From an uncultured Acidimicrobiaceae bacterium (lineage in GTDB: Bacteria > Actinomycetota > Acidimicrobiia > Acidimicrobiales > Bog-793): 64,000 nt of DNA. Of the stretch, positions 6,414-51,007 are shown piece after piece. The notes beneath the pieces were generated by a model. The model was not told where the DNA came from. It saw only the letters and a list, made by a program, of their open reading frames with translations, and did not search any database. Position numbers and translations under genes: made by a program. The DNA lies in contig CAWKGD010000005.1 in assembly GCA_963849105.1 (NCBI GenBank), forward strand, positions 360,145-424,144, in the 5' to 3' direction. How positions within the stretch are numbered: position 1 is the first letter of the stretch; every line of letters begins with the position of its first letter.

Positions 6414-7418
6414 CTAAGCGAGCAGCTCCGTCATATCAGCGCGCTCTTCCATCAGCTCTTCGGTCGTCGCAGCGATCCGGGCTCGCGCGAATTCCGAGTG
6501 CTCCAAACCTTCGACGACGCTCCATGACTTCCCGTCGCTTCTCACGGGGTATCCGAACTGGAGGCCCTCTGGGACGCCGTACTCGCCTCTCGAGACGACG
6601 GCCAAGGAACTCCAATCGCCGCTTCTCGTCGGGGTGAGAACGCTTCGCATGGAGTCGATCGCCGCGTTCGCGGCTGACGCCGCAGAAGACGAGCCTCGGG
6701 CATCGATGATCGCCGCGCCGCGCTTTTGGATCGTCTCCAAAAACGCGCCTTGCAACCAGGCGTCGTCACCGATGACCTTCGGGGCGGGATCCCCTTCGAT
6801 CCGCGCGTTCTCAAAGTCCGGGAATTGTGTCGAGGAGTGGTTCCCCCATACGGCGAGGTTCGTCACGGTGGCGACCGGCCGGTTCGACTTCTTCGCGAGC
6901 TGGGTCTTCGCACGGTTCTCGTCGAGGCGGGTCATGGCGAACCACCGCTCGGCGGGAATGTCCGGCGCATTCGAACGGGCGATCAGGCAGTTCGTGTTGC
7001 ACGGGTTGCCGACGACAAGGATCCGCACATCGGATGTCGCGTGGGCGGCGATTGCCTCTCCTTGTGGCTTGAAGATGCCGCCGTTCACACCGAGCAGGTC
7101 CTTGCGTTCCATACCGGCTTTGCGCGGGATCGAGCCGACGAGGAAAACGTAGGACGACCCGTCGAACGCCGCCTTCAGATCCGAGGTGGCGACCACATCT
7201 GTGAGCAGAGGGAAGGCGCTGTCGTCGAGTTCCATGACGACACCCTCGAGGGCCTTCATCGCTGGCTCGATCTCAAGGAGTCGAAGCACGACCGGTTGCT
7301 CCGGTCCGAAAAGTTCGCCAGATGCCAGGCGGAAGAGCAACGCGTAGCCAATATTGCCGGCGGCTCCGGTGACGGTGACCTGGACGGGGGCGCGCCCAAA
7401 GGGCGTCGAAGTCGTCAT
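6414..7418 (-). CDS. mdh: malate dehydrogenase (NAD-dependent)
   Basis: Internal ATG at 7418 gives 334 aa. Motifs: [20 protein letters not shown] Rossmann, [19 protein letters not shown]. The longer tool ORF (to 7829) adds a non-homologous N-extension. Confidence 0.95.
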
Positions 7419-7524
7419 ACCGATCGAGGCTATCCCGCATCCTCGCTGTGCTCGAAGGGGTAGCGGAGCGGTCCCTCCTGAAAAACATCCTCGTCCGACT
7501 ACCCTTTTTCGGCAGATATCGGCG

Positions 7525-10500
7525 ATGGACGGGGATCCGGTGATCTGTTCGAACTGCGCCACGGAGAATCCGATCGAAGCTCGCTTCTGCCTCGAATGTG
7601 GGCAGGGTCTCGTCCAGTCGTGTGCGAACTGCGGAACCGCTCTTCCTCCAGCAGCACGCTTCTGCTTTTCGTGCGGGCAATCCGTAGAGCAGACCTCGCC
7701 GCCTCCCACAGCGCCTGCTGACGGCGCGCAGGCCGCCGCCTCGGTCGCGTCGGCTTTCTCCCGAACGACCGCTGGCGCAACGCAACTCCGCCAGGTTTCC
7801 GTGCTGTTCTGCGATCTCGTTGACTTCACGACCTTGTCAGAGTCACGGGATCCCGAGGAAGTCCGCGAACTCCTGTCCGGTTACTTCGAGCTCGCCCGAT
7901 CGGTCGTCTCCCGCTATGGCGGAACGATCGAGAAGTTCATCGGCGACGCCGTGATGGCGGTGTGGGGCGCGCCCGTCGCAAAGGAAGATGACGCCGAACG
8001 CGCCGTCCGGTCGGCGCTCGACCTCGCCGCGGCGATATCCGCGTACGGCGACGAGCACGGCGTGCCACTCGATGCCCGCATCGGCGTCGCGACCGGCGCG
8101 GCGGCGACGACGACGCCGGAAGAGGGCATCGTCATCGGCGACCGGGTGAACACCGCGGCGCGCATCCAGTCCGTCGCGCCGCCGCGCAGCTGCTTCGTCG
8201 ACGACGCGACGAAGAACTCCACTTCCGCGGCGATCGCCTACCGCGACGCCGGCGAATTCGAATTGAAAGGGAAATCTGAACGCGTCCATCTCAATGAGGC
8301 GATGCGCGTCGTCGCCGGAGTCGGCGGCGCGCTGAAGTCACAGCGGCTCGAGGCACCCTTCGTCGGACGCGACGGCGAATTTCGGCTCGTGAAGGAGCTC
8401 CTCCACACCTCAGCCGAGCAACGTCGCGGCCTCCTCGTATCGATCGTCGGCGTGGCAGGGATCGGCAAGAGTCGGCTCGCCTGGGAGTTCTTCAAATACA
8501 TCGACGGGCTCGCCGACCCCTACTACTGGCACCTCGGACGGTGCCTCGCGTATGGAGACGGCGTCACGTACTGGGCCCTGGCGGAAATGGTGCGCAGCCG
8601 GGCGGGCATCGTGGAAGCTGAGGATCCAGCCTCGGCGAGCGTGAAGCTGCATACGACGGTCGAAACCTACGTCGCCGACGCGGACGAGCGCCGCTGGGTG
8701 GAGGCTCGTCTCGCCCAGCTTCTCGGTCTCGAACCCCGCACGTCGAACGACCGGGAGGACCTCTTTGCCGGGTGGCGCTTGTTCTTTGAGCGCATGGCGG
8801 AGATCAACCCGGTTGTTTTGTCCTTCGAAGACATGCAGTGGGCGGATTCGGCGCTGCTCGACTTCGTCGAATACCTGCTCGACTGGTCACGCAACCACCC
8901 CATCTTCGTGATCACGCTGACCCGTCCCGAGCTGCTCGAACGACAGCCCAACTGGGGCGCCGCGCACCGCAACTTCACCTCGATCGCGCTCGAACCGCTC
9001 GCGCCCCAGGCGATGCGTGCGCTGATCTCTGGACTCGTGCCCGGTCTTCCTGAAGAAGCCCGGGCACGGATCCTCGATCGCGCCGAAGGCATCCCGCTCT
9101 ACGCGGTCGAGACCATTCGCATGCTGATCGACCGCGGCGTGCTCGTGGGAGGCGACGGTGCCTACCGGCCGGCGGGACCGATCGACGCTCTCGAGATACC
9201 CGAGACCCTTCAAGCGCTCATCGCGGCGCGCCTCGACGATTTGAATGCTCTCGAACGCCACGTCATCGAGGACGCCTCCGTTCTCGGCAAGACCTTCACC
9301 CGCAAAGGTCTCTCGCAACTCTCTGGAATCGCGAACGAAGAGCTGTCCGAACCGCTCGAAGCGCTGATCCGCAAGGAACTCGTTTCGCTCCAGGCGGATC
9401 CGCGCTCTCCAGAACGCGGCCATTACATCTTCCTCCAGGACATGGTGCGCATGGTTGCGTACGAGTCGCTCCCGAAGCGGGATCGCAAAGAGAAGCACCT
9501 CGCGGCCGCCTCATATCTTGAAGGTGCCTTCGAGACCGAAGAGGACGAAGTCGTCGAAATCATCGCATCCCACTACCGCAGCGCGTTCGAACTCGCGCCG
9601 GGCGCTGAAGACGCGGGGTCGGTGAAGACACGAGCACGAGAGATGACGATGCGTGCGGGCGAGCGCGCCGCAGCGCTCGCCGACGCCGTTGGCGCGCAAA
9701 GGTATTTCGAACAGGCCATCGGTCTCACCGACGAGGATCTCGAGCGGGCGCACCTTGAAGAGCGCGCCGGTCAAATGGCCCGCCTCGCCGGCCGACCCGA
9801 TGCGGCGAGAACACACTCCGAACGTGCTATCTCGCTTTACGACCTGCTCGGAGAGACGCACCCGAGCGCCCGGGTCTCGGCGCAACTCGGCGAGATCGAC
9901 TTCGACGAGCTTCACATGCAACAAGGGATCGAGAGGATGGAAAGAGCCTTCGCGCTTCTTTCCGAAGACGAACCCGACGCCGATCTCGTGACGCTCGCAG
10001 CACAGCTCGGACGGTTCCATCTCTTTGCCGGGGCACCCGACGTCGGATTCCGGCGCGTCGAGTTCGCGCTCGAGCAAGCCGAAAAGCTCCGACTACGCGA
10101 ACAGTTCGTCCAAGCGCTCAATACGAAGGCGGTGATCCTCGAGTTCAAACGCCGACGCGAGGAGGCAACGCTGCTGCTTCGCCATGCGCTCGCCGTGGCG
10201 CTCTCGGAAGGCCTTTCCCAAGCGGCACTGCGCGCCTACAACAACCTCACCGCATTCCTTTCGGGCGGCGACCAACTCGACGAAATGCTGAAGCTCAGCC
10301 AGCAAGCGATCGAGCTCGCCCAGCGCATCGGTGATCGGGCATGGGAAGCGGGTTTCCTTTTGGGCGATATGAACCTCTGCGTGCTTCTCGGTGAATGGGA
10401 TCGCGCACTTGAGCTCGTATCAGAGATACGCGATCGACCCGGAATCCCGAGCTTCCTGATGACGCGGCTTATGTACGTGCTGCCGGTTCATATCCATCGC

Positions 10501-11079
10501 GGTGACCTCGCCGCGGCTCGCGAGGTGCTCGATTTGTTCGGAAACCTCGAAGATGCCGAAGAGATCCAGACTCGTGCGGCGTACTTGTCCTCGAAGTCCA
10601 TCGTGCTGCACGCCGAAGGAAAGCTCGAGGAAGCCCTCAAGGCGACTAATGAAGCGGCGGAAGCGTTGCACACGGTCGGAACGGGTGAATCGAAGGAGAT
10701 TCTCATCGACTTGCTCAACGTGGCTTTCGACGCCGACCGCGCGCGGGCTGCAGAGGTCGTTCGGGAGGTCGAGATGCTGAATCCAGGCGAGATCGCTCCC
10801 TCCCTGGGCGCGCACATGAGGCGCGTCCGGGCGAAGTTGTCGCCGACTCCGAGAAACGAAGACTTCGAGTACGCGATTGGCGTGTTTCGCGATCTTTCGA
10901 TGCAATTTTGGCTCGCCGTTGGTTTGCTCGAGTACGCGGAGTCGTTGGCCGCCCAGGATAGATATGACCAATCGCGTGCCGCGCTCGATGAAGCGCGAAC
11001 GCTCTTCGAAAAGCTTCGCGCGGCACCCTGGGTCGATCGCGTCACGAGCGCCGCAACGCAGCTTGCTTCCTCGAATTGA
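7525..11079 (+). CDS. multidomain signalling protein: double zinc ribbon + class III adenylate/guanylate cyclase + P-loop STAND ATPase + TPR repeats
   Basis: CSNC..CLEC..CANC..CFSC zinc ribbons. Cyclase motifs [37 protein letters not shown]. Walker [11 protein letters not shown]. Long helical-repeat C-terminus. Start taken at the ATG MDGDPV. Confidence 0.9.
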
Positions 11080-31971: not shown

Positions 31972-34500
31972 GTGAACCTCGACTCTTGGCGCGTCATCAC
32001 CTACCGGGCTCGGCGAACCCTCGCCCACCGCTTTCGGTCGTACCTCGCGATCACGCTCGTCCTCGGCGCGCTCGGCGGCTTGGCGCTCGGATCGATCGCC
32101 GCCGCACGGAGGACACAGTCCGCCTACCCGCAGTTTCTCGAGAGCACGAATCCCTCGACGCTCCAGGTGACCGTGTGGGAGTACACGACGTCCACCGGCG
32201 CCGTCCCACTTCGCCAACAGGATGCGATGGCGGGCGAGCTCAGCCGGCTGCGGAACGTCCGGCACGTCGAGCGCTTCGTCTACCCGCTCACGGCGCCGAT
32301 CAACGCGAAAGGACAGCTCGAGCGCGATGCGGCGATCTCACCCGTCGCGAGCGTCGCCGGGGATTTCTTCAACGAGGATCGACCGGCCGTCGTCGCAGGA
32401 CGCATGCCGAACCCGGACTCCCCCGGTGAGTTCGCAACAACCCCGCTGGCGGCACGTAGCCAGGGATGGCACGTCGGCGAATCCATCAACTGGGCGGTTT
32501 TTCGCCCGAGCCAGTTCAGTGCAAGTGGCGCGACCCCCGAACACCCCGCGCGAATCGTGCGCGAGAGGCTCGTCGGCCTCGTCGAGTTCAACACGTCGGT
32601 TCTGCAAGACCAGGCGGACGCCAAGACATCGCTCGCCCTCTTCACTCCTGCCTTCGCGCGGGCGGATGCGTTCGGAGGCGGGGGTACAAACTTCGCGATC
32701 CAGCTGCGAAGGCGCGGGTCGGTCGCCGCGACCGAGAAACAGGTCATCGAACTCCTTCCGCCGGGCGCCGTCTATGAGTTCGCGGTCACCGCCGATGCGG
32801 TCGCCAAGGTCGAACGTTCGATCCGTCCTGAGTCAATCGCGCTCGCCGCCTTCGGAGGTGTCGTCGCGATCGCGGCGCTGGCGATCGCGGCGATGGCGAT
32901 TGCGCGATTGATTCGATCCAACGAAGACGACCGTGAGGTGCTGCGCGCGCTCGGGGCAACCCCGCTCGTGCAGATCGGTGACGTCGAGATGGGAGTGCTG
33001 GCGTCGATCCTCGCTGGATGCGCGCTCGCGGTCGGCGTGGCGGTTGCGCTGTCACCGATCGCGCCGCTTGGTTCGGTGCGCGTCGTCTACCCGTTCAAGG
33101 GCTTTGTGTTCGACGGCGCCCCGCTCGGCTTCGGGGTTCTCGCTCTTCTCGTCGTCCTCGTGTCGGTCGCGATCGTGATCGGATGGCGTTTCGCCTCGGC
33201 CAAGCGCTCCGCGGCCTACGTTCCACCGTCCGGATTGGGGACGTGGTCGACACGATTCGCGCGCGCCCTTCGACTGCCGATGCCAGCGGTTCTCGGCGTG
33301 CGGGGGGCGGTGCAGTCGACTCCGGTGCGCACCGCGGCGCCGGCGCGTTCGACGATCTTCGGTGCGACGCTGGCGATCGTCCTCCTCGTGACGACCCTGA
33401 CGTTCGGCGCCAGCCTTTCGACCCTCGTCTCCCATCCCCGCCTGTACGGCTGGAACTGGACGTTCGCGCTCGCGGGCAGCGACGACGTGCCACCCCAGGC
33501 GCTGTCTGCGTTGCACCACGATCGAGACGTGGCCTCATTCAGCGGGTGGAGCACCGGCGCGAACGTCCAAGTCGACGGGCTCACGGTCCCCTCGATGATC
33601 AGCGGTTCGGATCCGACGGTCGCGATGCCCATACTCACCGGCCACCCTGTACGCGCAGCAAATCAGGTCGTCCTCGGTCCGACGACACTCGCCGAAATCC
33701 ACAAGCGCGTCGGCGACACCGTCGTGCTCTCGTACGGAACGAAGGCCGATTACCCGATCTACGTCCCGGCGGAGCGCATGGAGATCGTCGGGACGGCGAC
33801 GTTCCCAGCCGTCGGCGGCATCGGCGGCGCGGCAGTCCTGCACCCTTCGATGGGGACGGGGATGTGGTTCGAGTGGCAGGCGGCGTCGCGCCTACACCGC
33901 TTGGTGATGGGATCCATCTACACGCTCTCCGGACCGAATTTGGCACTGATCCGGATGCGGCCAGGGGTCTCCGCGTCTGCGGCGCGAGCGAATCTCGATC
34001 GGATCGTCTCGTTTTCCGACCGGGTGCTGGCGAAGTACCAGGATGAAGTCTTGTTGCTCAGCGTTCAGCGGCCGGCGGAGATCGTCAACTACCGCTCGAT
34101 GGGCGCCACACCCTCGTACCTCGCATTGGGGGTCGTGCTCGGTGCCGTCATCGCGCTCGCGGCAGCGCTGACGGCTTCGGTCAGAACGCGCCGTCGCGAG
34201 CTCGCTTTGTTGAAGGCGCTCGGCTTCACCGGGCGACAGCTCGCTTGGACGATCGTGTGGCAGGCGACCGTGATCGCGTTGATCGGGATCATCATCGGTG
34301 TCCCGATCGGCATCGCCGTCGGCAGGTGGCTGTGGATCCTGTTCGCTCGCAGCATCGCGGCGGTGCCCGAGCCAGCCGTCCCGGTCCTGAGCATCGTCCT
34401 CGTCGGCATCGGTGCGCTCGTCATCGCCAACTTCGTTGCCGCGATCCCCGGTCGCGTCGCGCGGCGCACGCCGCCCGCTCTCGTGTTGCGAACCGAATGA
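31972..34500 (+). CDS. ABC transporter permease with two FtsX domains (MacB/YbbP-like); no adjacent ATPase
   Basis: 842 aa. TM1 is followed by a large extracytoplasmic domain and a TM bundle, and the unit is repeated. The C-terminal repeat reads RRRELALLKALGFTGRQL..., characteristic of FtsX permeases. Confidence 0.85.
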   Translation: MNLDSWRVITYRARRTLAHRFRSYLAITLVLGALGGLALGSIAAARRTQSAYPQFLESTNPSTLQVTVWEYTTSTGAVPLRQQDAMAGELSRLRNVRHVERFVYPLTAPINAKGQLERDAAISPVASVAGDFFNEDRPAVVAGRMPNPDSPGEFATTPLAARSQGWHVGESINWAVFRPSQFSASGATPEHPARIVRERLVGLVEFNTSVLQDQADAKTSLALFTPAFARADAFGGGGTNFAIQLRRRGSVAATEKQVIELLPPGAVYEFAVTADAVAKVERSIRPESIALAAFGGVVAIAALAIAAMAIARLIRSNEDDREVLRALGATPLVQIGDVEMGVLASILAGCALAVGVAVALSPIAPLGSVRVVYPFKGFVFDGAPLGFGVLALLVVLVSVAIVIGWRFASAKRSAAYVPPSGLGTWSTRFARALRLPMPAVLGVRGAVQSTPVRTAAPARSTIFGATLAIVLLVTTLTFGASLSTLVSHPRLYGWNWTFALAGSDDVPPQALSALHHDRDVASFSGWSTGANVQVDGLTVPSMISGSDPTVAMPILTGHPVRAANQVVLGPTTLAEIHKRVGDTVVLSYGTKADYPIYVPAERMEIVGTATFPAVGGIGGAAVLHPSMGTGMWFEWQAASRLHRLVMGSIYTLSGPNLALIRMRPGVSASAARANLDRIVSFSDRVLAKYQDEVLLLSVQRPAEIVNYRSMGATPSYLALGVVLGAVIALAAALTASVRTRRRELALLKALGFTGRQLAWTIVWQATVIALIGIIIGVPIGIAVGRWLWILFARSIAAVPEPAVPVLSIVLVGIGALVIANFVAAIPGRVARRTPPALVLRTE

Positions 34501-43220: not shown

Positions 43221-43621
43221 AGCCCGCGAAAGCCCTGATGAGCCGCGCGGCCGGTCGTCGGTCCCGATCAGGAATAGCTGGGTGTACGGCTGGACAGGAG
43301 ACCGACGAGCCGCCGATCGAGGACCAGCGCCCCTCGACGAGCTCGCGCTCCGACGTCGAGATATCCGAGAGGGAGAAACCCGATCTGACCGTCATCCGCA
43401 CTGTGGGGGTCTCGGTGCCTGCCTGGCAGGTGCCGGTGACCGCGACCGGCACCGCCTTCGGGCGCGGACTGACGGGATTCGGCGCGCGACTTTGGTTGTG
43501 CCGTCGTCGCGGCACGCGTTGCGTATGGTGTGGCGGGAGGTGTCCGAGTGATCCGAGCGAGAAATACCGTGAGATCGGCGCGCGCACGGCGCCGGCGGCC
43601 CTCTAGGCAACACCCAGGTTG

Positions 43622-44455
43622 ATGCGGATCCACATCTTCGGCACGCGGGGCTCGACGCCCACGCCAGGTCGCGACTTCGTCCGCTACGGCGGCCACACCT
43701 CCTGCCTCGGGGTGGCCTTCGACGGCGGCCTGCCGAGCCTCTTCGTCGACGCCGGCACCGGGATTCGTGGCGCCGACGCCGTCTTTGATGGCCAGCCCTT
43801 TCGCGGGTCGGTCCTTTTCGGCCACCTTCACTGGGACCACACCCAGGGCTTGCCGTTCTTTTCCTCGGCGGACCGAGAGGACGCCCGCGTCGACGCCTAC
43901 CTTCCCGCGCAGGGCGGCGGCGAAGCCGTCTTCGAACGCTTCATGTCGCCGCCCAACTTCCCGATCACGCCGGCCGGCCTGCGCGGGGCGTGGAACTTCC
44001 ATGCCCTCGAGCCCGGCGAGCACGAAGTGGAAGGATTCTCCGTGCTCGCGCTCGACATCCCCCACGGGGGCGGCAGAACCTTCGGCTACCGGATCTCCGA
44101 CGGCCGCTCCGCTTTCGCCTACCTGTCGGACCACTGCCCGACCAGCCTCGGCCCCGGTGCGGACGGCTTCGGCGAGTATCACGACACGGCGCTGGCCCTC
44201 ACCGATGGTTGCGACCTCGTGTTCCACGACTCGCAATACACGCCGGAGGAGCTGCCGGCAAAGGCGCACTACGGCCACGCCGCCTATCCGTACGCGGTGG
44301 GCCTCGCCGCCGCGGCGAAGGCCCGCGAGGTCGTGTTGTTCCACCACGATCCGTCGCGCACCGACGACGAGGTCGACGCGATCTTGAAGGAGTGCGCGGA
44401 CGCTCCCCTGCCCGTGCGCGCCGCCGTTCAGGACACGGTGATCACGCTCGGCTGA
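43622..44455 (+). CDS. MBL-fold metallo-hydrolase (PhnP / class II phosphodiesterase-like)
   Basis: About 277 aa. HLHWDH (HxHxDH) zinc motif, a downstream His (DIPHGG), an Asp/His-rich C-terminal half and LFHHDP. The ATG at 43622 is preceded by an in-frame TTG at 43619. Confidence 0.85.
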   Translation: MRIHIFGTRGSTPTPGRDFVRYGGHTSCLGVAFDGGLPSLFVDAGTGIRGADAVFDGQPFRGSVLFGHLHWDHTQGLPFFSSADREDARVDAYLPAQGGGEAVFERFMSPPNFPITPAGLRGAWNFHALEPGEHEVEGFSVLALDIPHGGGRTFGYRISDGRSAFAYLSDHCPTSLGPGADGFGEYHDTALALTDGCDLVFHDSQYTPEELPAKAHYGHAAYPYAVGLAAAAKAREVVLFHHDPSRTDDEVDAILKECADAPLPVRAAVQDTVITLG

Positions 44456-44511: not shown

Positions 44512-45174
44512 ATGTCGATCCGCGTCGTCCTCGCCGAGGACGACTACCTCGTTCGCGAAGGAGTCGCGCGACTGATCGCCACTGAAGACGACCTCGAGTT
44601 GGTCGCGACGTGTGCCGACTACGCGTCGCTGCTCGAAAGCGTCGACAGCGAACAGCCCGACGTCTTGGTGACCGACATCCGCATGCCGCCGACCGGGACC
44701 GACGAGGGGATCCGCGCGGCGAACGAGTTGCACACGCGCAATCCCGACGTCGGCGTCGTCGTCTTGAGCCAGTACGCCGAACCGAGCTACGCGCTCGCGT
44801 TCTTGGAGAACGGATCGCGCGGACGCGCTTACCTGCTGAAAGAGCGGGTCTCGGATATCAAACAGCTCGCCGACGCGATCAGGCAGACGGCCCAGGGCGG
44901 CTCGGTGATCGATCCGATCGTCGTCGACGCGCTCGTGGCGGCGAGATCGCGGGCGCAGAATTCGCCGTTGCGCCTGCTCACCCCGCGCGAGACCGAGATC
45001 CTCGCCGAGATGGCGACTGGCAAGAACAACGCTGCCGTCGCCGCGGCGCTCGTGCTGTCGGAGCGGGCGGTGGAAAAGCACATCAACTCGATCTTCTCCA
45101 AGCTCGGGCTCTCCCAGGAGCTCGACGTCCATCGCCGGGTGAAGGCCGTCCTGCTCTTTTTGTCCGACCGCTGA
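44512..45174 (+). CDS. NarL/LuxR-family response regulator
   Basis: 220 aa. Receiver motifs LAEDD, LVTDIRMPP and YLLK. C-terminal GerE/LuxR HTH LTPRETEILAEMATGKNNAAVAAALVLSERAVEKHINSIFSKLG. Confidence 0.92.
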   Translation: MSIRVVLAEDDYLVREGVARLIATEDDLELVATCADYASLLESVDSEQPDVLVTDIRMPPTGTDEGIRAANELHTRNPDVGVVVLSQYAEPSYALAFLENGSRGRAYLLKERVSDIKQLADAIRQTAQGGSVIDPIVVDALVAARSRAQNSPLRLLTPRETEILAEMATGKNNAAVAAALVLSERAVEKHINSIFSKLGLSQELDVHRRVKAVLLFLSDR

Positions 45175-45256: not shown

Positions 45257-45649
45257 GTGAGCGACGAGAAGGTCGGTGTCCTGATCGTTGACGATCAGGC
45301 GCCGTTCCGCATGGCCGCTGCAGCGGTCGTTCGTGCAACAAAGGGATTCGTCGTGATCGGCGAGGCGCGATCTGGAGAGGAAGCCGTCGAGCTCGCCGCG
45401 GCCCTCGAGCCGCAGCTCGTGCTGATGGACATCAACATGGAGGGCATCGGCGGCATCGAAGCGACGCGACGCATCGTCGACGCCCACCCGTCGGTGCGAG
45501 TCGTTCTTCTTTCGACCTACGACGTCGACAGCCTCCCCGCCGACGCGGCGACGAGCGGCGCGGTCGCGTACGTGCACAAGGAACAGTTCGGTCCTGATGT
45601 TCTGGCGAGCGCCTGGGCGGGAAAGCTCCCACTCACTTTCTCACCCTGA
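45257..45649 (+). CDS. stand-alone receiver (REC-only response regulator)
   Basis: 130 aa from a GTG start. Motifs LIVDDQ, LVLMDINMEG and a VHK lysine. No output domain. The 3' end overlaps the kinase 3' end by 17 nt. Confidence 0.85.
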   Translation: MSDEKVGVLIVDDQAPFRMAAAAVVRATKGFVVIGEARSGEEAVELAAALEPQLVLMDINMEGIGGIEATRRIVDAHPSVRVVLLSTYDVDSLPADAATSGAVAYVHKEQFGPDVLASAWAGKLPLTFSP

Positions 45650-47852
45650 GAGCGGACGGCGCGCTCTGCGCCGCGCCGTTCCCCGATGCCGCCGCCTGAT
45701 CGCTCAACGGCAGACGCCCGGAGATCTTCGTCCCTTTTCCGGGCGACGACTCGACGGTCACCGAGCCACCGATCGCGCCGACGCGGTCGCGCATGTTGAC
45801 GAAGCCCGCGCCGAGCCCTTTCGCGCTCTGCAGATCGAAGCCGGCACCGTCATCGGTGACTTCGAAAAACAACGTCCCTTCGCGTTCGTGGACCCGGACG
45901 ATTGCGCTCGCCCCATCGCCGGCGTGCTTGCCCGCGTTCTGCAACGCCTCCACGCAGCAGAAGTAGACGGCCGCCTCCTCCTCGGGTGAGTAGCGGCCGA
46001 GCCCTTCGGCCTCGACGTCGGTCGGGATCGCGGCGCGGCCCGCCGCGGATCGCAACGCCTCTTCGATACCGCGATCGATGAGCAACGGCGGGTAGATGCC
46101 GTGCGCGAGCGCGCGCAACTCTTGAACCGCGTCCTGCAGCTCGCCGCCGAGCTGATCGAGGATCTCCGCGGATCCTGTCGGGTCGGTCTCGACCAACTGG
46201 CGCGCCAGGCGGACGTTGACGGCCAGCGCGACGAGGTGCTGCTGTGCCCCGTCGTGCAGGTTGCGCTCGATCTGGCGGCGCGCGGCGTCCGACGCGGCAA
46301 CGATGCGCGCCCTCGATGCGCGCAGTTCGTCCGCCTGGCGCCGGACTTCGTCCAAGGACTCCTGCAGCGCCGAGTCCAACTCGACATTGTGGAGCGCCAG
46401 TCCGAGTTGGCGGGCGAGCTCGACAAGCGTCGTGTCATCGTTCTCGGTGAAGCGCTCACCGTCGGACTTGCGCGTCGCGACGACGAGGCCGAGGACGCGC
46501 CCCGAATGCGTCGTCGGCGCGACGCGAAGAGAAAGACCTTCGCGGCCCTCGAGGAGCTTCGGCATCCAGATCTCGAGCCAGGCGTTGCCCGAAACCCCGG
46601 CGCGGGCGACGACCGACTCCTCACTCGAGGAGAGCACGATTCGCTGCGGCGGCGCATCGGGTACCGACACCGCGCGCTCGAGCACCCCACCGGATCCGGT
46701 CCAGATCTCCGCAGAAGAGAGCGCCAGCGTCTTGCGCAGCGACTCGACCACCTGCAGCAAGAGCTCTTCGAGCGGCATCGCCCGGGTGAGGCGGGTCGCG
46801 AAGGTGCGCAGGACGGTGTCGGGCGCCTCGCGCTCGCCGTAGACGACGCGGTTGGCGAACGCGTTCAAGCGCGTCCGTGCCGGGCCGTAAACGAGCGCCG
46901 AGACCGCGGCGGCGATCATCGAAAGGATGAGTAGCGTGCGCTCCGCCTTCGTCGGCGCGTGTCCGATCCCCAAGATGACGATCAAGTAGACGACGACGAC
47001 CACCCCGGTCAGCCCGGCGACCGACACCGACCAGGCGAGCAGCCGGTCGATGCGTGCTGCGAGGCTCGTTAACGCGCCGGCGGCGACGGCGACGGCGATC
47101 GGCACGGTCGCGACGGTGACGACGAGCGCCTCGCGCGTCGGCCAGCCCCAAAAGAGGCGCAACGCCTCCGCGAGCACCACCAGTTCGAGGCCGACCGACA
47201 CGGCCCAGCCGAACCACTGCATCCGCTGGCGCTCGAGTCCCGCCGATCGGCGGTAGCGGCGGCGGGCGCCGACGAGCCCGATCGGCACCGCGACGAGCAG
47301 TTCGACCCCGATCGGCCACAGCGGCAGCGTGGGGCGATCGCTCCAGACGCCGAAACCGACGCCGACGGCGACGAGATAGCCGGCCCCGATCGCGAACCGA
47401 CTCAGCCGGCAGGTGCCGTCCGGCAGTCCGAGCAGGACGTGCATCGTCGACACCGGCAAGATGCAGAGCGCGAGCGGCTCGACGAGGCGGGCCGCCGTGA
47501 CGAGGCCACCCGGGACCGCCGTCCCGTGGGCGTGCGCCTCGACAAGCGCCGCGGAGACGACGGCGGCCGACGCGAAGAGCGTCGCGGACAGAACAAGCAG
47601 TGGCTGGCGTTCCTTCGGCTTCAGCGCGAGGGCGGATCCTCCGGCGAGCGCGAAGCAGCCGACGACGACCGCCCGCACGATCTGGGTCAGCAGATCGCCG
47701 CGATGGTCGACGACTGGAGCCGCGACCGCGCCGGCGAGCGCCGCCACGGCGAGTAGGAGCCCCGGCCCGAAGACGAGTTGCCGCCGCGCCACCGGCGCGG
47801 CCGTCTCGCGGCGCACGCCCAACTGGCTGACGACGATCGGCGCGTCCATCAC
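45633..47852 (-). CDS. sensor histidine kinase: about 10 TM segments + GAF + HisKA_3 + HATPase
   Basis: 739 aa. The N-terminal roughly 330 aa has about ten hydrophobic spans. A GAF-like region follows (LLLQVVESLRKTL...VLGLVVATR). H-box ERNLHDGAQQHLVAL, plus N/G boxes NAGKHA and DDGAGFD..GLG. The start overlaps the ABC ATPase stop. Confidence 0.92.
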   Translation of the reverse strand: MMDAPIVVSQLGVRRETAAPVARRQLVFGPGLLLAVAALAGAVAAPVVDHRGDLLTQIVRAVVVGCFALAGGSALALKPKERQPLLVLSATLFASAAVVSAALVEAHAHGTAVPGGLVTAARLVEPLALCILPVSTMHVLLGLPDGTCRLSRFAIGAGYLVAVGVGFGVWSDRPTLPLWPIGVELLVAVPIGLVGARRRYRRSAGLERQRMQWFGWAVSVGLELVVLAEALRLFWGWPTREALVVTVATVPIAVAVAAGALTSLAARIDRLLAWSVSVAGLTGVVVVVYLIVILGIGHAPTKAERTLLILSMIAAAVSALVYGPARTRLNAFANRVVYGEREAPDTVLRTFATRLTRAMPLEELLLQVVESLRKTLALSSAEIWTGSGGVLERAVSVPDAPPQRIVLSSSEESVVARAGVSGNAWLEIWMPKLLEGREGLSLRVAPTTHSGRVLGLVVATRKSDGERFTENDDTTLVELARQLGLALHNVELDSALQESLDEVRRQADELRASRARIVAASDAARRQIERNLHDGAQQHLVALAVNVRLARQLVETDPTGSAEILDQLGGELQDAVQELRALAHGIYPPLLIDRGIEEALRSAAGRAAIPTDVEAEGLGRYSPEEEAAVYFCCVEALQNAGKHAGDGASAIVRVHEREGTLFFEVTDDGAGFDLQSAKGLGAGFVNMRDRVGAIGGSVTVESSPGKGTKISGRLPLSDQAAASGNGAAQSAPSALRVRK

Positions 47853-48577
47853 TCGACGATCGCGACGTCGATCTCCGCTTCGATCACACGCGCAGTGTGC
47901 TGCTCGACGTCGGATTCGACGCGACCGTCGCGCATATGAACGAGGCGAGACGCCGGGGCTGCGACGTCCTCGTCGTGGGTGACCAAAAGGATCGACTGAC
48001 CACCGGCGTGCAGGCGCCGGAACAGTTCGAGGACTTCGAAGCCGCCTTCGGAGTCGAGGGCGCCGGTCGGTTCGTCGGCGAGAAGGAGCGTCGGCGCGTT
48101 GGCGAGCGCACGCGCGATCGCGAGCCGTTGGCGTTCGCCGCCAGAAAGCAACCCGGGCGCGGCGCGCGCCTTGTCGGCGAGGCCGAGCAGATCGAGAAGG
48201 TCGCGCGCCCGACTCTCTGCTTGCCGCCGCCGCAAACCGGCGACCACGGCGGGGAGCGTCGCGTTCTCAAGGACGGTCATTCCTTCCAAGAGGTTGAAGA
48301 ACTGAAAGACGATGCCGATGTGTCGTCGGCGCATCAATGCGAGTTCGTCCTCGTCCATGCCGGACAATGCTTCGCCGGCGACGAAGATCTCTCCGTCGGT
48401 CGGCACGTCGAGTCCCGCGACGAGATTGAGAAGCGTCGATTTGCCGCATCCTGACGGTCCCATGATCGCGACGAACTCCCCGTCGTCGATCGACAGATCG
48501 AGTCCCCGCAGCGCCCGCACCGGCGCGCCTTCTGTTTCGTAGGTCTTGCGCAACCCGCGCGCCTGCATCACGGTCAT
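47849..48577 (-). CDS. ABC transporter ATP-binding protein (MacB/LolD/FtsE-like), no cognate permease adjacent
   Basis: 242 aa. Walker A GPSGCGKST, Q-loop, signature LSGGERQR, Walker B LLLADEPTGALD, H-loop THD. ATGA overlap with the upstream cyclase gene. Confidence 0.95.
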   Translation of the reverse strand: MTVMQARGLRKTYETEGAPVRALRGLDLSIDDGEFVAIMGPSGCGKSTLLNLVAGLDVPTDGEIFVAGEALSGMDEDELALMRRRHIGIVFQFFNLLEGMTVLENATLPAVVAGLRRRQAESRARDLLDLLGLADKARAAPGLLSGGERQRLAIARALANAPTLLLADEPTGALDSEGGFEVLELFRRLHAGGQSILLVTHDEDVAAPASRLVHMRDGRVESDVEQHTARVIEAEIDVAIVE

Positions 48578-49947
48578 CGATCCGCCCCCGCCACTTGAGC
48601 CGCCACCTTCCAGGCGCCGACCATTCCCGAGCGTCCCTTAACCGTCGACGGCGGGATCGGCTCCGCCACGACCGGATCCTGCAGCGCGGCGTGCGTCGCT
48701 TCGGAGACCACGGTTTCTCCGGGTTCTGCCCACTGCTGAATGCGCTGCGCGAGGTTCACGGTGTCGCCGACGACCGTGTACTCCAAGTGCTCATCCGATC
48801 CGAGCAGCGCCGCCGCCACCTCGCCAGTCGTGATGCCGATGCCGAGGCCGAATTCCGGCAGACCTTCGTCGCGCCAGTGCTCGTTGACCGCGCCTTGTGC
48901 GCGGTGCATCGCCAGCGCGGCGCGCAGCGCCTTGTCGGCGTGGTCTTCGATCGGAACCGGCGCGCCGAAGACGGCCATCACCGCGTCACCGACGAACTGC
49001 ATGACGGTGCCACCTTGCGCGATCACTGCCCTGTTCATCTCGCCGCGGTGCACGTTCAACTGCCCGGCGAGCGCGCTCGGATCGGCGTGTTCGGCGATCG
49101 TCGAGTAGCCGCGGATGTCCGACATCAAGACGCTGACGTTGAGCTGCACCGTCTCGCCCGGACGGCACCCCTCGTCACGAAGCATCCGCGCGACACCGCC
49201 CGGGAGCAGCCGGCTGAGCGTCTCTCCTTGTTCTTCGCGGTCAACGATCGCTTCGTGCAGTCTGCGCAACTGCCGCAGCGACTGGCGCCCGCCGCTGCTC
49301 GCGTCCTTCGCCAGGCGGAGGAACAGCCGCTCGACTGCCTCCGCCGTCGCCGCCGGGGTCGTGTTCGTGGCGACGGCGATCGCCTTGATCGGGCGACCCT
49401 CGGCGACGAGCTTCAAGAGCTGTTCGTCGGATTCGTCGAGCCCGCCCGAATCGGTGACGGGATGGACCATCGACTCGACGATCGCCGGATCGAGCACCGA
49501 ACCCCCCGTGGCCACGGCTCGCACGGCCCGAGCGAGCTGGTCTCCCTCCGCGACGCGGTCCTTCAAGAGGTACGCGTAGCCGGCCGACCCTTCGGCGAGC
49601 AGCGAGATCGCGTACTCGGGATCGTCGAATTGGGAGAGGACGACGATCCCCGTCCCGGGATGGCGCTTGCGGATCTCGTGCGCCGCGTCGATGCCTTCTT
49701 GTTGGAAGTTCGGCGGCATCCTGATGTCGGTGACCACGACTTGCGGCGCGAGACGCTCCGATTCCGACACGAGTTCGTCGTAGTCACCGGCGGTGCCGAC
49801 GAGTTCGAAGTCGCGCTCCAGCCCGAGTAGCGCCTTCACGCCTTCTCTGACGATCAAATTGTCGTCCGCGAGAAAGACGGTGATCGTCGGCCCCCCAACG
49901 CCTCGATCGCGTCCCGCGATCTGCCGTTCCTCCTCGAGCGTAGACAC
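48574..49947 (-). CDS. response regulator with receiver + degenerate LuxR-like HTH + class III nucleotide cyclase output
   Basis: 457 aa. Receiver LADDN, VVTDIRMPP, AYLLKDRV. The middle segment LLKLVAEGRPIKAIA...AEAVERLFLRLAK aligns to the LuxR HTH. Cyclase motifs VLMSDIRGYS, MQFVGDAVMAVFGAP, GDTVNLAQRIQ. Confidence 0.9.
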   Translation of the reverse strand: MSTLEEERQIAGRDRGVGGPTITVFLADDNLIVREGVKALLGLERDFELVGTAGDYDELVSESERLAPQVVVTDIRMPPNFQQEGIDAAHEIRKRHPGTGIVVLSQFDDPEYAISLLAEGSAGYAYLLKDRVAEGDQLARAVRAVATGGSVLDPAIVESMVHPVTDSGGLDESDEQLLKLVAEGRPIKAIAVATNTTPAATAEAVERLFLRLAKDASSGGRQSLRQLRRLHEAIVDREEQGETLSRLLPGGVARMLRDEGCRPGETVQLNVSVLMSDIRGYSTIAEHADPSALAGQLNVHRGEMNRAVIAQGGTVMQFVGDAVMAVFGAPVPIEDHADKALRAALAMHRAQGAVNEHWRDEGLPEFGLGIGITTGEVAAALLGSDEHLEYTVVGDTVNLAQRIQQWAEPGETVVSEATHAALQDPVVAEPIPPSTVKGRSGMVGAWKVAAQVAGADR

Positions 49948-49948
49948 G

Positions 49949-51007
49949 TCAGCTCTGTTCCCGCCGGTGCCCGCTCGCGAGTTCCCTCAGGACGTCGCTG
50001 TCGAACTGGTCGGCCGACGCGAAGGCGAGCTTGCACTTCGTTACTGCTCGCACTGTCGCGGTGCGCTTGCCGCCTTCGAGCGCGGCGCGCTCGCCGTGGA
50101 TCGACCCAGGACCGCACTCGACGAGCGGCTTGCCGTCGACCTCGACGCGCACGACACCGTCGAGGACCAAGAACAGATCGCGGCCGGCGTCTCCTTGCTC
50201 GAGGATCGTTGAGCCTTCCTTCACCGTCGCGACGCGTGGACGCTCGCCGCCACGCATCAGCTCGCCCGACATCTCGCGTTCGAGCGCGGTCTCGATCGCC
50301 GTCGTGAGCGCCCGCGAATCGCGGTCGCCCCATGGACTGTGAACGCCAAACGCGCGGCGGTACCAATTCGAGAAGTCGATCAGTCCGGACTTCTGGGCGA
50401 GCTTGCCGTCCGGCCCGTAGATCCAGTGCCGCGGGAACGAACTCGCGCCGCGCACGTCAATGTGCGTACGCCCGTCAACAAAGATCGTCAGGGCGAGCGT
50501 CGTCCATACCAAGGGCGCCGACAACTGGATGAACGGCGCCCGCCGGACGCGCCGCGGCGCGGGAATGCCCGTCCGCCCGCCGGCCGTCTGGACGAACGTC
50601 ACGCTGCGATCGGTGACGATCGGCTCGGGGCGGATGTCGGGAAGCGGCACCGCCTGGAAGGTCTTCTCGATGCCGGCGAGCCGCACCGTCGTCGAACCGA
50701 TCACCCCACCACCGGACTGTCCGTGGTCGACGATCCGGCCGTTCTCGGTTTCGATGAAGCCGCGCAGTTCATTGGCGAAACGGAAACGGTCCGCCAGGCG
50801 CAGCTCCTCGAGGTCCCTCACGACCTCCGGCGGTGCGTTGTCGTAATGGGTGATCCCGATGTCGAAGGGCGCACGCACCGCGACGCCGCTGATCGCCTCC
50901 GACGGGATCCAAGAGATCGAAGTGACCGAAGCCTCGGTGCGCATCATCGCCCCCCAGGCGGGCTGTCGCCCGCTCCGCCCGCGTCGGACGCGCGGGTTCT
51001 CGTGCAT
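49949..51007 (-). CDS. cyclic-nucleotide-binding (CNB) domain protein with uncharacterised N-terminal domain of about 230 aa
   Basis: 352 aa. The C-terminal roughly 95 aa has a CNB beta-barrel and phosphate-binding cassette (LFLVLDGVVRV...GPGSIHGERAALEGGKRTATVRA). The N-domain is not recognised. The start could be M21/M22 rather than M1. Confidence 0.85.
   Translation of the reverse strand: MHENPRVRRGRSGRQPAWGAMMRTEASVTSISWIPSEAISGVAVRAPFDIGITHYDNAPPEVVRDLEELRLADRFRFANELRGFIETENGRIVDHGQSGGGVIGSTTVRLAGIEKTFQAVPLPDIRPEPIVTDRSVTFVQTAGGRTGIPAPRRVRRAPFIQLSAPLVWTTLALTIFVDGRTHIDVRGASSFPRHWIYGPDGKLAQKSGLIDFSNWYRRAFGVHSPWGDRDSRALTTAIETALEREMSGELMRGGERPRVATVKEGSTILEQGDAGRDLFLVLDGVVRVEVDGKPLVECGPGSIHGERAALEGGKRTATVRAVTKCKLAFASADQFDSDVLRELASGHRREQS

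Follow-up and report, generated by a model that had tools for sequence, protein, structure and literature searches.

A putative class III nucleotidyl cyclase derived from a LuxR-type response regulator, with glutamine at its base-specifying position, in an uncultured Acidimicrobiaceae bacterium

In this work, we describe a gene that joins a receiver domain, a vestigial helix-turn-helix (HTH) and a class III nucleotidyl cyclase in one protein, and consider which nucleotide that protein makes. The gene lies at positions 48574-49947 on the minus strand of a 64,000-nucleotide (nt) stretch of contig CAWKGD010000005.1 from an uncultured Acidimicrobiaceae bacterium; this whole stretch is called the window, and all coordinates are positions in it. 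The open reading frame (ORF) encodes 457 amino acids (aa), starts with GTG and stops with TGA. Its sequence supports the view that a LuxR-type response regulator has gained a cyclase output, and we consider it probable that the product is a phosphorylation-controlled class IIIb-type cyclase that evolved from a NarL/LuxR regulator and most likely makes cyclic AMP (cAMP). A first-pass annotation of the window, made from the letters alone, had proposed a receiver-HTH-cyclase fusion, which is borne out here with two corrections: the GerE-type HTH is below Pfam detection, and its register had been misplaced. Class III cyclases gated by a receiver have been described before, as have cyclases whose base-reading residues are non-canonical; here the two are joined. 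The gene and its parts are as follows.

48574..49947, minus strand: whole gene, encoding receiver, vestigial HTH, linker and class III cyclase (ORF list, Pfam, codon check)
49465..49887, minus strand: NarL-type receiver, residues 21-161 (Response_reg, E 3.6e-14; 51% identity to the receiver encoded at 44512-45174)
49309..49452, minus strand: vestigial LuxR/GerE HTH, residues 166-213 (segment-only profiles and hhalign; Pfam silent)
49156..49308, minus strand: helical linker into the cyclase, residues 214-264, including LSRLLPGGVARML (model helices, alignments)
48598..49155, minus strand: class III cyclase catalytic domain, residues 265-450 (Guanylate_cyc, CyaB alignment, Foldseek)

Four observations bear out the proposed descent from a LuxR regulator: the receiver has a paralogue in a neighbouring LuxR-type regulator, a kinase of the HisKA_3 type is encoded in the same operon, the middle segment is GerE-like, and a sister family with the same architecture retains a clearer HTH. 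In Pfam searches, the protein matches Response_reg at residues 24-124 (E 3.6e-14) and Guanylate_cyc at residues 270-442 (E 9e-24), with no significant match between these two domains. Of the three domains expected from the first-pass annotation, Response_reg and Guanylate_cyc are thus recovered by Pfam and GerE is not.

The receiver has the features of the NarL/FixJ type, that is, an acidic pocket, a phospho-acceptor Asp, a Ser and a Lys. The motifs LADDN, VVTDIRMPP and AYLLK, on which the initial assignment was based, are all found in the translated product, and the five key residues listed below are invariant in 51 relatives.

49861-49866, minus strand: acidic pair D28/D29 (codons confirmed)
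49726-49728, minus strand: phospho-acceptor D74 (codon confirmed)
49633-49635, minus strand: S105 (codon confirmed)
49561-49563, minus strand: K129 (codon confirmed)

An estimate by eye that the receiver is about half identical to that of the regulator at 44512-45174 proves accurate (51% identity over 141 aa, E 3e-45). Moreover, similarity to this class of regulator extends beyond the receiver. NCBIfam profiles of whole NarL-type regulators (MadR, MctR, NarL, UhpA and UvrY) align from residue 22 to about residue 190-212 at E 1e-19 to 3e-24, under their equivalog cut-offs, and the solved NarL-family regulators DevR, NarL and VraR align with residues 22-217, 22-208 and 21-209 of the cyclase protein, respectively. 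In terms of the known structures, NarL (1a04), DevR (3c3w), VraR and DesR align with it through the receiver, the linker and the HTH to about NarL residue 193-197. The protein differs from NarL/FixJ regulators in its degenerate HTH, in the replacement of the last HTH helix, and in having an enzyme as its output.

Since Pfam GerE (PF00196) gives no match to the middle segment at E up to 1, we used segment-only profiles from which the receiver was excluded. A profile of residues 160-236, built from 26 family members, was searched against 177,635 sequences. It matches the isolated NarL DNA-binding domain at E 0.001-0.006 in an ungapped alignment of 46 residues, and among the 18 matches listed for it, 13 are GerE/LuxR-type HTH domains (NarL, VraR, DesR, DevR and others). 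When the segment was compared by hhalign with the GerE domain from orthologues of the neighbouring regulator, the probability was 92.9% (E 3.6e-7, 48 ungapped columns). A GerE/LuxR similarity is therefore present in profile searches (E about 1e-3; hhalign 93%), as a remote similarity below the family threshold for a GerE output domain. As for the alignment of this segment with the HTH of the 44512-45174 regulator given at first pass, the similarity stands and the register of the recognition helix does not: the pairing of AEAVER with ERAVEK places that helix 3 residues out, and the best alignment is ungapped.

In the structural model, the helices of the HTH remnant span residues 172-182, 187-193 and 198-217, and correspond to the first three GerE helices. 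Both the alignment and the model indicate that the third helix continues into a long helical linker and that the fourth GerE helix, which in this family mediates dimerisation on DNA, has been replaced. Because the positions of the NarL recognition helix that read TVKVHVKH are aligned with AAADAVEK in the cyclase protein, we infer that the remnant no longer binds DNA. The HTH-like segment is strongly conserved, being among the best-conserved stretches of the protein, and therefore has some role, the most plausible being that of a structural coupler from the receiver to the linker. Across the end of the HTH and the linker, the model helices comprise residues 198-217, 221-235 and 250-258, and alignments with the soluble domains of mycobacterial cyclases begin at residues 224-236. 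The modelled shape of the linker resembles a cyclase transducer element, and it may correspond to one.

The catalytic domain is readily recognised. It matches Guanylate_cyc (PF00211) with 84.5 bits against a cut-off of 21.9 and CyaB (3r5g) with E 2.6e-27, and according to Foldseek its predicted fold has a template-modelling score (TM-score) of 0.86 to Cya2 and CyaB. The domain is complete, as had been proposed, with both metal-binding Asp residues and the transition-state Asn and Arg intact, and nothing in its sequence suggests an inactive enzyme. The catalytic and base-specifying positions are the following.

49117-49119, minus strand: metal Asp D277 (invariant in 120 relatives)
48997-48999, minus strand: Gln317 (CAG), first base-specifying position (opposite the Lys of CyaB and the Glu of Cya2)
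48985-48987, minus strand: metal Asp D321 (invariant in 120 relatives)
48775..48777, minus strand: Thr391 (ACG), second base-specifying position, class IIIb type (opposite the Thr of CyaB)
48754-48756, minus strand: transition-state N398 (invariant in 120 relatives)
48742-48744, minus strand: transition-state R402 (invariant in 120 relatives)

On the minus strand, ggt ggc acc gtc atg cag ttc gtc ggt gac is translated as GGTVMQFVGD, which confirms the Gln codon CAG reported earlier at 48997-48999. The two base-specifying sites compare with those of solved enzymes as follows.

This protein: first site GGTVMQFVGD; second site LEYTVVGDTVN
P. aeruginosa CyaB: first site GGTIDKFVGD; second site MDYTIIGREVN
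Spirulina CyaC: first site GTVDKFVGD
Cya2 (a guanylyl cyclase): first site GGTIDEFMGD; second site TKYGVVGAQVN

Because these alignments are unambiguous, Gln317 can be assigned to the column that holds the adenine-selecting Lys or the guanine-selecting Glu, and Thr391 to that of the Thr found in class IIIb enzymes. The specificity column thus holds Gln, not Lys, and the second site Thr391, in agreement with the first-pass annotation. A canonical adenylyl cyclase has Lys four residues before the second metal Asp, where Gln317 stands here, and Asp (classes IIIa and IIIc) or Thr (class IIIb) at the second site, where Thr391 conforms. Guanylyl cyclases have Glu at the first site and Cys, Gly or Ser at the second, and this pattern is not found either, since Gln and Thr lie opposite the Glu and Gly of Cya2. 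In addition, Met316 precedes Gln317 where canonical enzymes carry Asp. In comparison with CyaB (3r5g), CyaC (1wc0) and Synechocystis Cya2 (2w01), the protein has the same fold (TM-score about 0.85, 28-33% identity), the same pair of metal Asp residues and the same Asn/Arg pair, and it has the second-site Thr of CyaB. However, CyaB and CyaC are Asp-Lys enzymes and Cya2 is an Asp-Glu enzyme where the present protein is Met-Gln, and none of the three has a NarL-type receiver and an HTH remnant in front of the cyclase.

The family to which this protein belongs is very large and strongly conserved. A word-indexed search found at least 7,638 proteins at E <= 1e-10, the best 120 of which are 73-100% identical over nearly the full length and come from Acidimicrobiales metagenome genomes; Met316, Gln317 and Thr391 are invariant in all 120. 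An exhaustive search of 50%-identity representatives yielded 999 clusters at E <= 1e-30. Among the best 150 of these, 71 representatives cover the first site, which is occupied by Gln in 60, Lys in 5, Glu in 1 and Arg in 5, the Arg readings being apparently due to frameshifted gene calls. More distant Gln-type domains have Thr or Ser at the second base-specifying site. When one genome per species was scanned, full-length relatives with an identity of 65% or more were found in at least 576 genomes, mostly of Acidimicrobiia; the best 80 of these relatives are 64-94% identical and are labelled Acidimicrobiia, Egibacteraceae, Nitriliruptorales and, in the case of some metagenome bins, Dormibacterota or Chloroflexi, where the bin labels may be wrong. 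Gln-type domains are also found in proteins of about 600 aa that have a different N-terminus, are apparently membrane-embedded and lack a receiver. One of these, the membrane-anchored P0155, is encoded convergently to a CRP/FNR-type regulator with cNMP_binding and HTH_Crp_2 domains (L099:1148-3746). A different arrangement is seen in P0121 (561 aa), a Gln-type protein with a second receiver after the cyclase (Response_reg, residues 446-555), which gives the order receiver, HTH-like segment, cyclase, receiver.

A Lys-type sister family, represented by P0129 and its relatives, occurs in Actinomycetota metagenome genomes with 45-48% identity to the present protein. It shares the three-part architecture and the key receiver residues, and a NarL regulator and kinases of the HisKA_3 type are encoded nearby, but it carries the canonical Asp-Lys/Thr combination (118 of 120 sequences), and its HTH is better kept, with weak GerE and Sigma70_r4_2 matches and an hhalign probability of 95%. 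The cyclic nucleotide-binding (CNB) partner described below was not seen on the side of the sister family: at the one locus examined, we found a regulator and two HisKA_3 kinases and no CNB gene. In a tree of the catalytic domains, the 42 Gln-type sequences all group together (support 0.80), and this clade is sister to the Lys-type receiver-cyclases with a joint support of 0.998. Note that this tree does not polarise the change between Lys and Gln; the outgroup cyclases carry Lys. Since the receiver/HTH/cyclase architecture is common to both sister clades, it fits a single fusion before their split. The Gln state marks one clade and has been retained in it since, the receiver-less proteins included. 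The two sister clades, with one architecture and Asp-Lys or Met-Gln at the first site, thus constitute a natural experiment on nucleotide choice.

The neighbourhood of the gene suggests how the protein is used. The genes concerned are listed below.

49949..51007, minus strand: CNB partner, with an N-terminal beta-rich domain and a C-terminal cyclic nucleoside monophosphate (cNMP)-binding domain (cNMP_binding, E 5e-16)
47849..48577, minus strand: MacB/LolD-type ABC ATPase (ABC_tran, E 4e-35; NCBIfam MacB/LolD; start overlaps the cyclase stop, ATGA)
45633..47852, minus strand: multi-pass membrane GAF/HisKA_3/HATPase histidine kinase (Pfam; start overlaps the ATPase stop, GTGA)
45257..45649, plus strand: receiver-only protein, convergent with the kinase (Response_reg, E 1.3e-21)
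44512..45174, plus strand: NarL/LuxR-type response regulator, paralogue of the cyclase's receiver (Response_reg and GerE)
43619..44455, plus strand: metallo-beta-lactamase (MBL)-fold hydrolase, candidate cyclic-nucleotide phosphodiesterase (weak NF041851 match, linkage)

Four co-directional genes, for the CNB protein, the cyclase, the ABC ATPase and the kinase, follow one another with a 1-nt gap between the stop codon of the upstream CNB gene and the cyclase start, and then with the ATGA and GTGA overlaps. The genes for the receiver-only protein, the LuxR regulator and the MBL hydrolase are convergent to this run. Residues 25-326 of the kinase contain many hydrophobic spans, and the GAF, HisKA_3 and HATPase domains follow; NarL-family receivers have kinases of the HisKA_3 type as their partners. 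The whole gene set is also present at the locus of a relative with 74% identity. For a wider view, we counted neighbours at 46 loci with full 6-kb flanks and found the CNB gene at 38, the lone receiver at 38, the kinase at 36, the LuxR regulator at 33, the ATPase at 32 and the MBL gene at 29. The CNB counterpart is a whole-length homologue within 6 kb in those 38 of the 46 loci. In 45 of the 75 loci that have enough flank, it directly adjoins the cyclase gene; in more distant genomes it is mostly divergent, and the MBL gene is often directly downstream of the CNB gene among flanked loci.

Two of the neighbours bear on the fate of the nucleotide. The CNB partner is modelled with confidence (predicted local distance difference test score, pLDDT, 78.8): a beta-rich N-terminal domain at about residues 21-240 precedes a CNB barrel at the C-terminus. 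The N-terminal domain is highly conserved (for example, FPRHW is invariant), and Foldseek, Pfam and Protein Data Bank (PDB) profile searches match the CNB part of the protein alone. The phosphate-binding cassette is intact (GERAAL...KRTATVRA). We considered its Arg-Thr-Ala motif as a discriminator between cAMP and cyclic GMP (cGMP), but rejected it because receptors of both kinds carry this motif. The MBL hydrolase matches NF041851, a cyclic nucleotide-degrading phosphodiesterase family, over its full length but weakly, with E 1.7e-5 and far below the cut-off. Enzymes of the Rv1339 type have the signature [T/S]HxHxDH (PMC9293780); the hydrolase has GHLHWDH, which is near this signature and does not match it, with Gly in place of Thr/Ser. 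It is thus a candidate for the degrading enzyme of the module.

Taken together, these data lead us to the following proposal. The membrane GAF/HisKA_3 kinase of the operon would phosphorylate D74, and the phosphorylated receivers would dimerise. The HTH remnant would then act as a rigid coupler and, with the helical linker, would set two catalytic domains in register; active sites of class III cyclases form across the interface of a head-to-tail dimer. The resulting cyclic nucleotide would be read by the cNMP-binding protein encoded upstream, and the linked MBL hydrolase may degrade it. The paralogous LuxR regulator and the lone receiver are probably served by this kinase too. If it is shared in this way, a single stimulus would lead both to a transcriptional response and to a second messenger. 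The module would thus be a conserved set for synthesising, sensing and possibly degrading a messenger in abundant soil Actinomycetota, and the gene would record a transcription factor turning into a signalling enzyme, with the old DNA-binding domain kept as a structural part. We regard cAMP as the most likely product, perhaps together with appreciable turnover of GTP or a relaxed purine specificity; the sequence does not by itself decide the matter.

Several points weigh against this proposal. The structural model is a monomer with a mean pLDDT of 70.7, and about 60-74 in the HTH remnant; because it is moderate and monomeric, the coupling mechanism is put forward as a proposal. The loss of DNA binding is deduced from residue changes. 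Gene linkage is the basis on which the kinase is named as the likely phosphodonor. Finally, a product other than cAMP would likewise be compatible with two features of the system, the invariant Met-Gln pair and the dedicated CNB partner.

The first alternative concerns the product. The Met-Gln clade might make cGMP, or be deliberately dual for ATP and GTP, so that its messenger would be separate from the general cAMP pool; we regard this as unlikely. Gln317 is located exactly at the position of the adenine Lys and the guanine Glu, and its amide side chain could donate or accept hydrogen bonds, which is how the glutamine switch of phosphodiesterases works. The Met-Gln pair is invariant, has a single origin and has been kept through wide diversification, with Asp-Lys in the sister family. 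Genes for Gln-type receiver-cyclases are in tight linkage with a CNB gene of their own, and none was found at the one Lys-type locus. On the other hand, Thr391 is the ordinary partner residue of class IIIb adenylyl cyclases, and the CNB cassette does not separate cAMP from cGMP. One membrane-type Gln cyclase adjoins a CRP-type regulator, which we count for the cAMP reading; no CRP-type neighbour was seen for the other four of the five membrane-type Gln cyclases examined, which is uninformative on the nucleotide.

The genome as a whole provides arguments on both sides. It is 2.6 Mb in size and contains 15 class III cyclase domains and 7 cNMP-binding domains, numbers with which insulation of signals would be useful, in favour of a separate messenger. 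However, the canonical Lys is present in just 3 of the 15 cyclase domains. In the others, apart from the present protein, which alone has Gln, the residue is Asn, Asp, Ser or Ala. The characterised mycobacterial cyclases without Lys, Rv0386 (Gln/Asn) and Rv1900c (Asn/Asp), are reportedly still mainly adenylyl cyclases, which also argues for cAMP. Rv0386 in particular is said to have Gln at the Lys position and Asn at the second, and to be an adenylyl cyclase with a guanylyl side-activity; it is described as consisting of a cyclase, an ATPase and a functional C-terminal LuxR domain, and as having no receiver. According to PMC3466318, it joins a cyclase and a LuxR-type HTH in one protein and has an alternative mode of substrate selection or binding (Castro et al. 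2005, FEBS J, cited therein). Since 12 of the 15 cyclase domains of this genome lack Lys and Rv0386 is a precedent, Gln at the base-reading site is less unusual than the first-pass annotation implied. Compared by description, the present protein is not of the Rv0386 type, since it has Thr and not Asn at the second site and begins with a receiver. The long Rv0386-like cyclases of this genome have Lys or Asn at the specificity site.

We retain cAMP as the most likely product, and consider it unlikely that the physiological product of the Met-Gln clade is cGMP or a programmed mixed purine output, and not plain cAMP. If it were, the clade would provide a private, kinase-gated messenger channel beside the ordinary cAMP network of Acidimicrobiia and related Actinomycetota, with a dedicated CNB protein having a previously unseen N-terminal domain as its receptor. 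In either case, receiver gating and a non-canonical base reader are joined in one family, and a cNMP receptor of its own has so far been seen in the Gln clade only, with one locus inspected on the Lys side.

A second alternative is that the protein is still a transcription factor too, whose HTH binds DNA, so that phosphorylation controls both promoter binding and cNMP synthesis. The strong purifying selection on the HTH-like segment and its ungapped alignment with GerE-type HTH domains are in line with this, but the segment is below Pfam GerE detection, the positions of TVKVHVKH are rich in Ala, Asp and Glu (AAADAVEK), and the fourth GerE helix has been replaced by the cyclase linker; a dual role of this kind thus seems improbable to us, and a vestigial HTH serving as a coupler is preferred. 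Least of all do we expect the cyclase and the CNB protein to be a Pycsar-like anti-phage pair making a pyrimidine cyclic nucleotide, even though the two genes lie side by side and PADLOC profiles match both products (PycC for the cyclase, best E 3e-21; Pycsar effectors for the CNB domain of the neighbour), because those matches are confined to the generic cyclase and CNB domains, the partner has no TIR (Toll/interleukin-1 receptor) or other Pfam match outside its CNB domain and a modelled N-terminal domain that is beta-rich and soluble-looking, the cyclase is gated by a two-component receiver, and the chromosomal module is conserved over hundreds of genomes, which we take to be unlike a patchy defence island. 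An identification as Pycsar was accordingly rejected: neither a killing domain of the effector (TIR or transmembrane) nor a defence island was found, and the locus is a conserved two-component module.

Some minor observations on the genome and the locus may be added. Proteins of about 1170-1280 aa carry six of the genome's cyclase domains; in three of the six the specificity motif is V[ED]NFIGD, with Asn as the specifying residue. The other cyclase gene in the window is at 7348-11076 on the plus strand. The receiver-only gene (plus strand) and the kinase gene (minus strand) overlap at their 3' ends by 17 nt, at 45633-45649. The ABC ATPase gene is translationally coupled to the cyclase and kinase genes on either side, but the four-gene operon contains no permease gene; the closest gene of the FtsX type lies at a distance of about 13 kb, at about 32848-34476 on the plus strand; at the locus of one relative, L001, a gene for a double-FtsX protein adjoins the CNB gene in divergent orientation.

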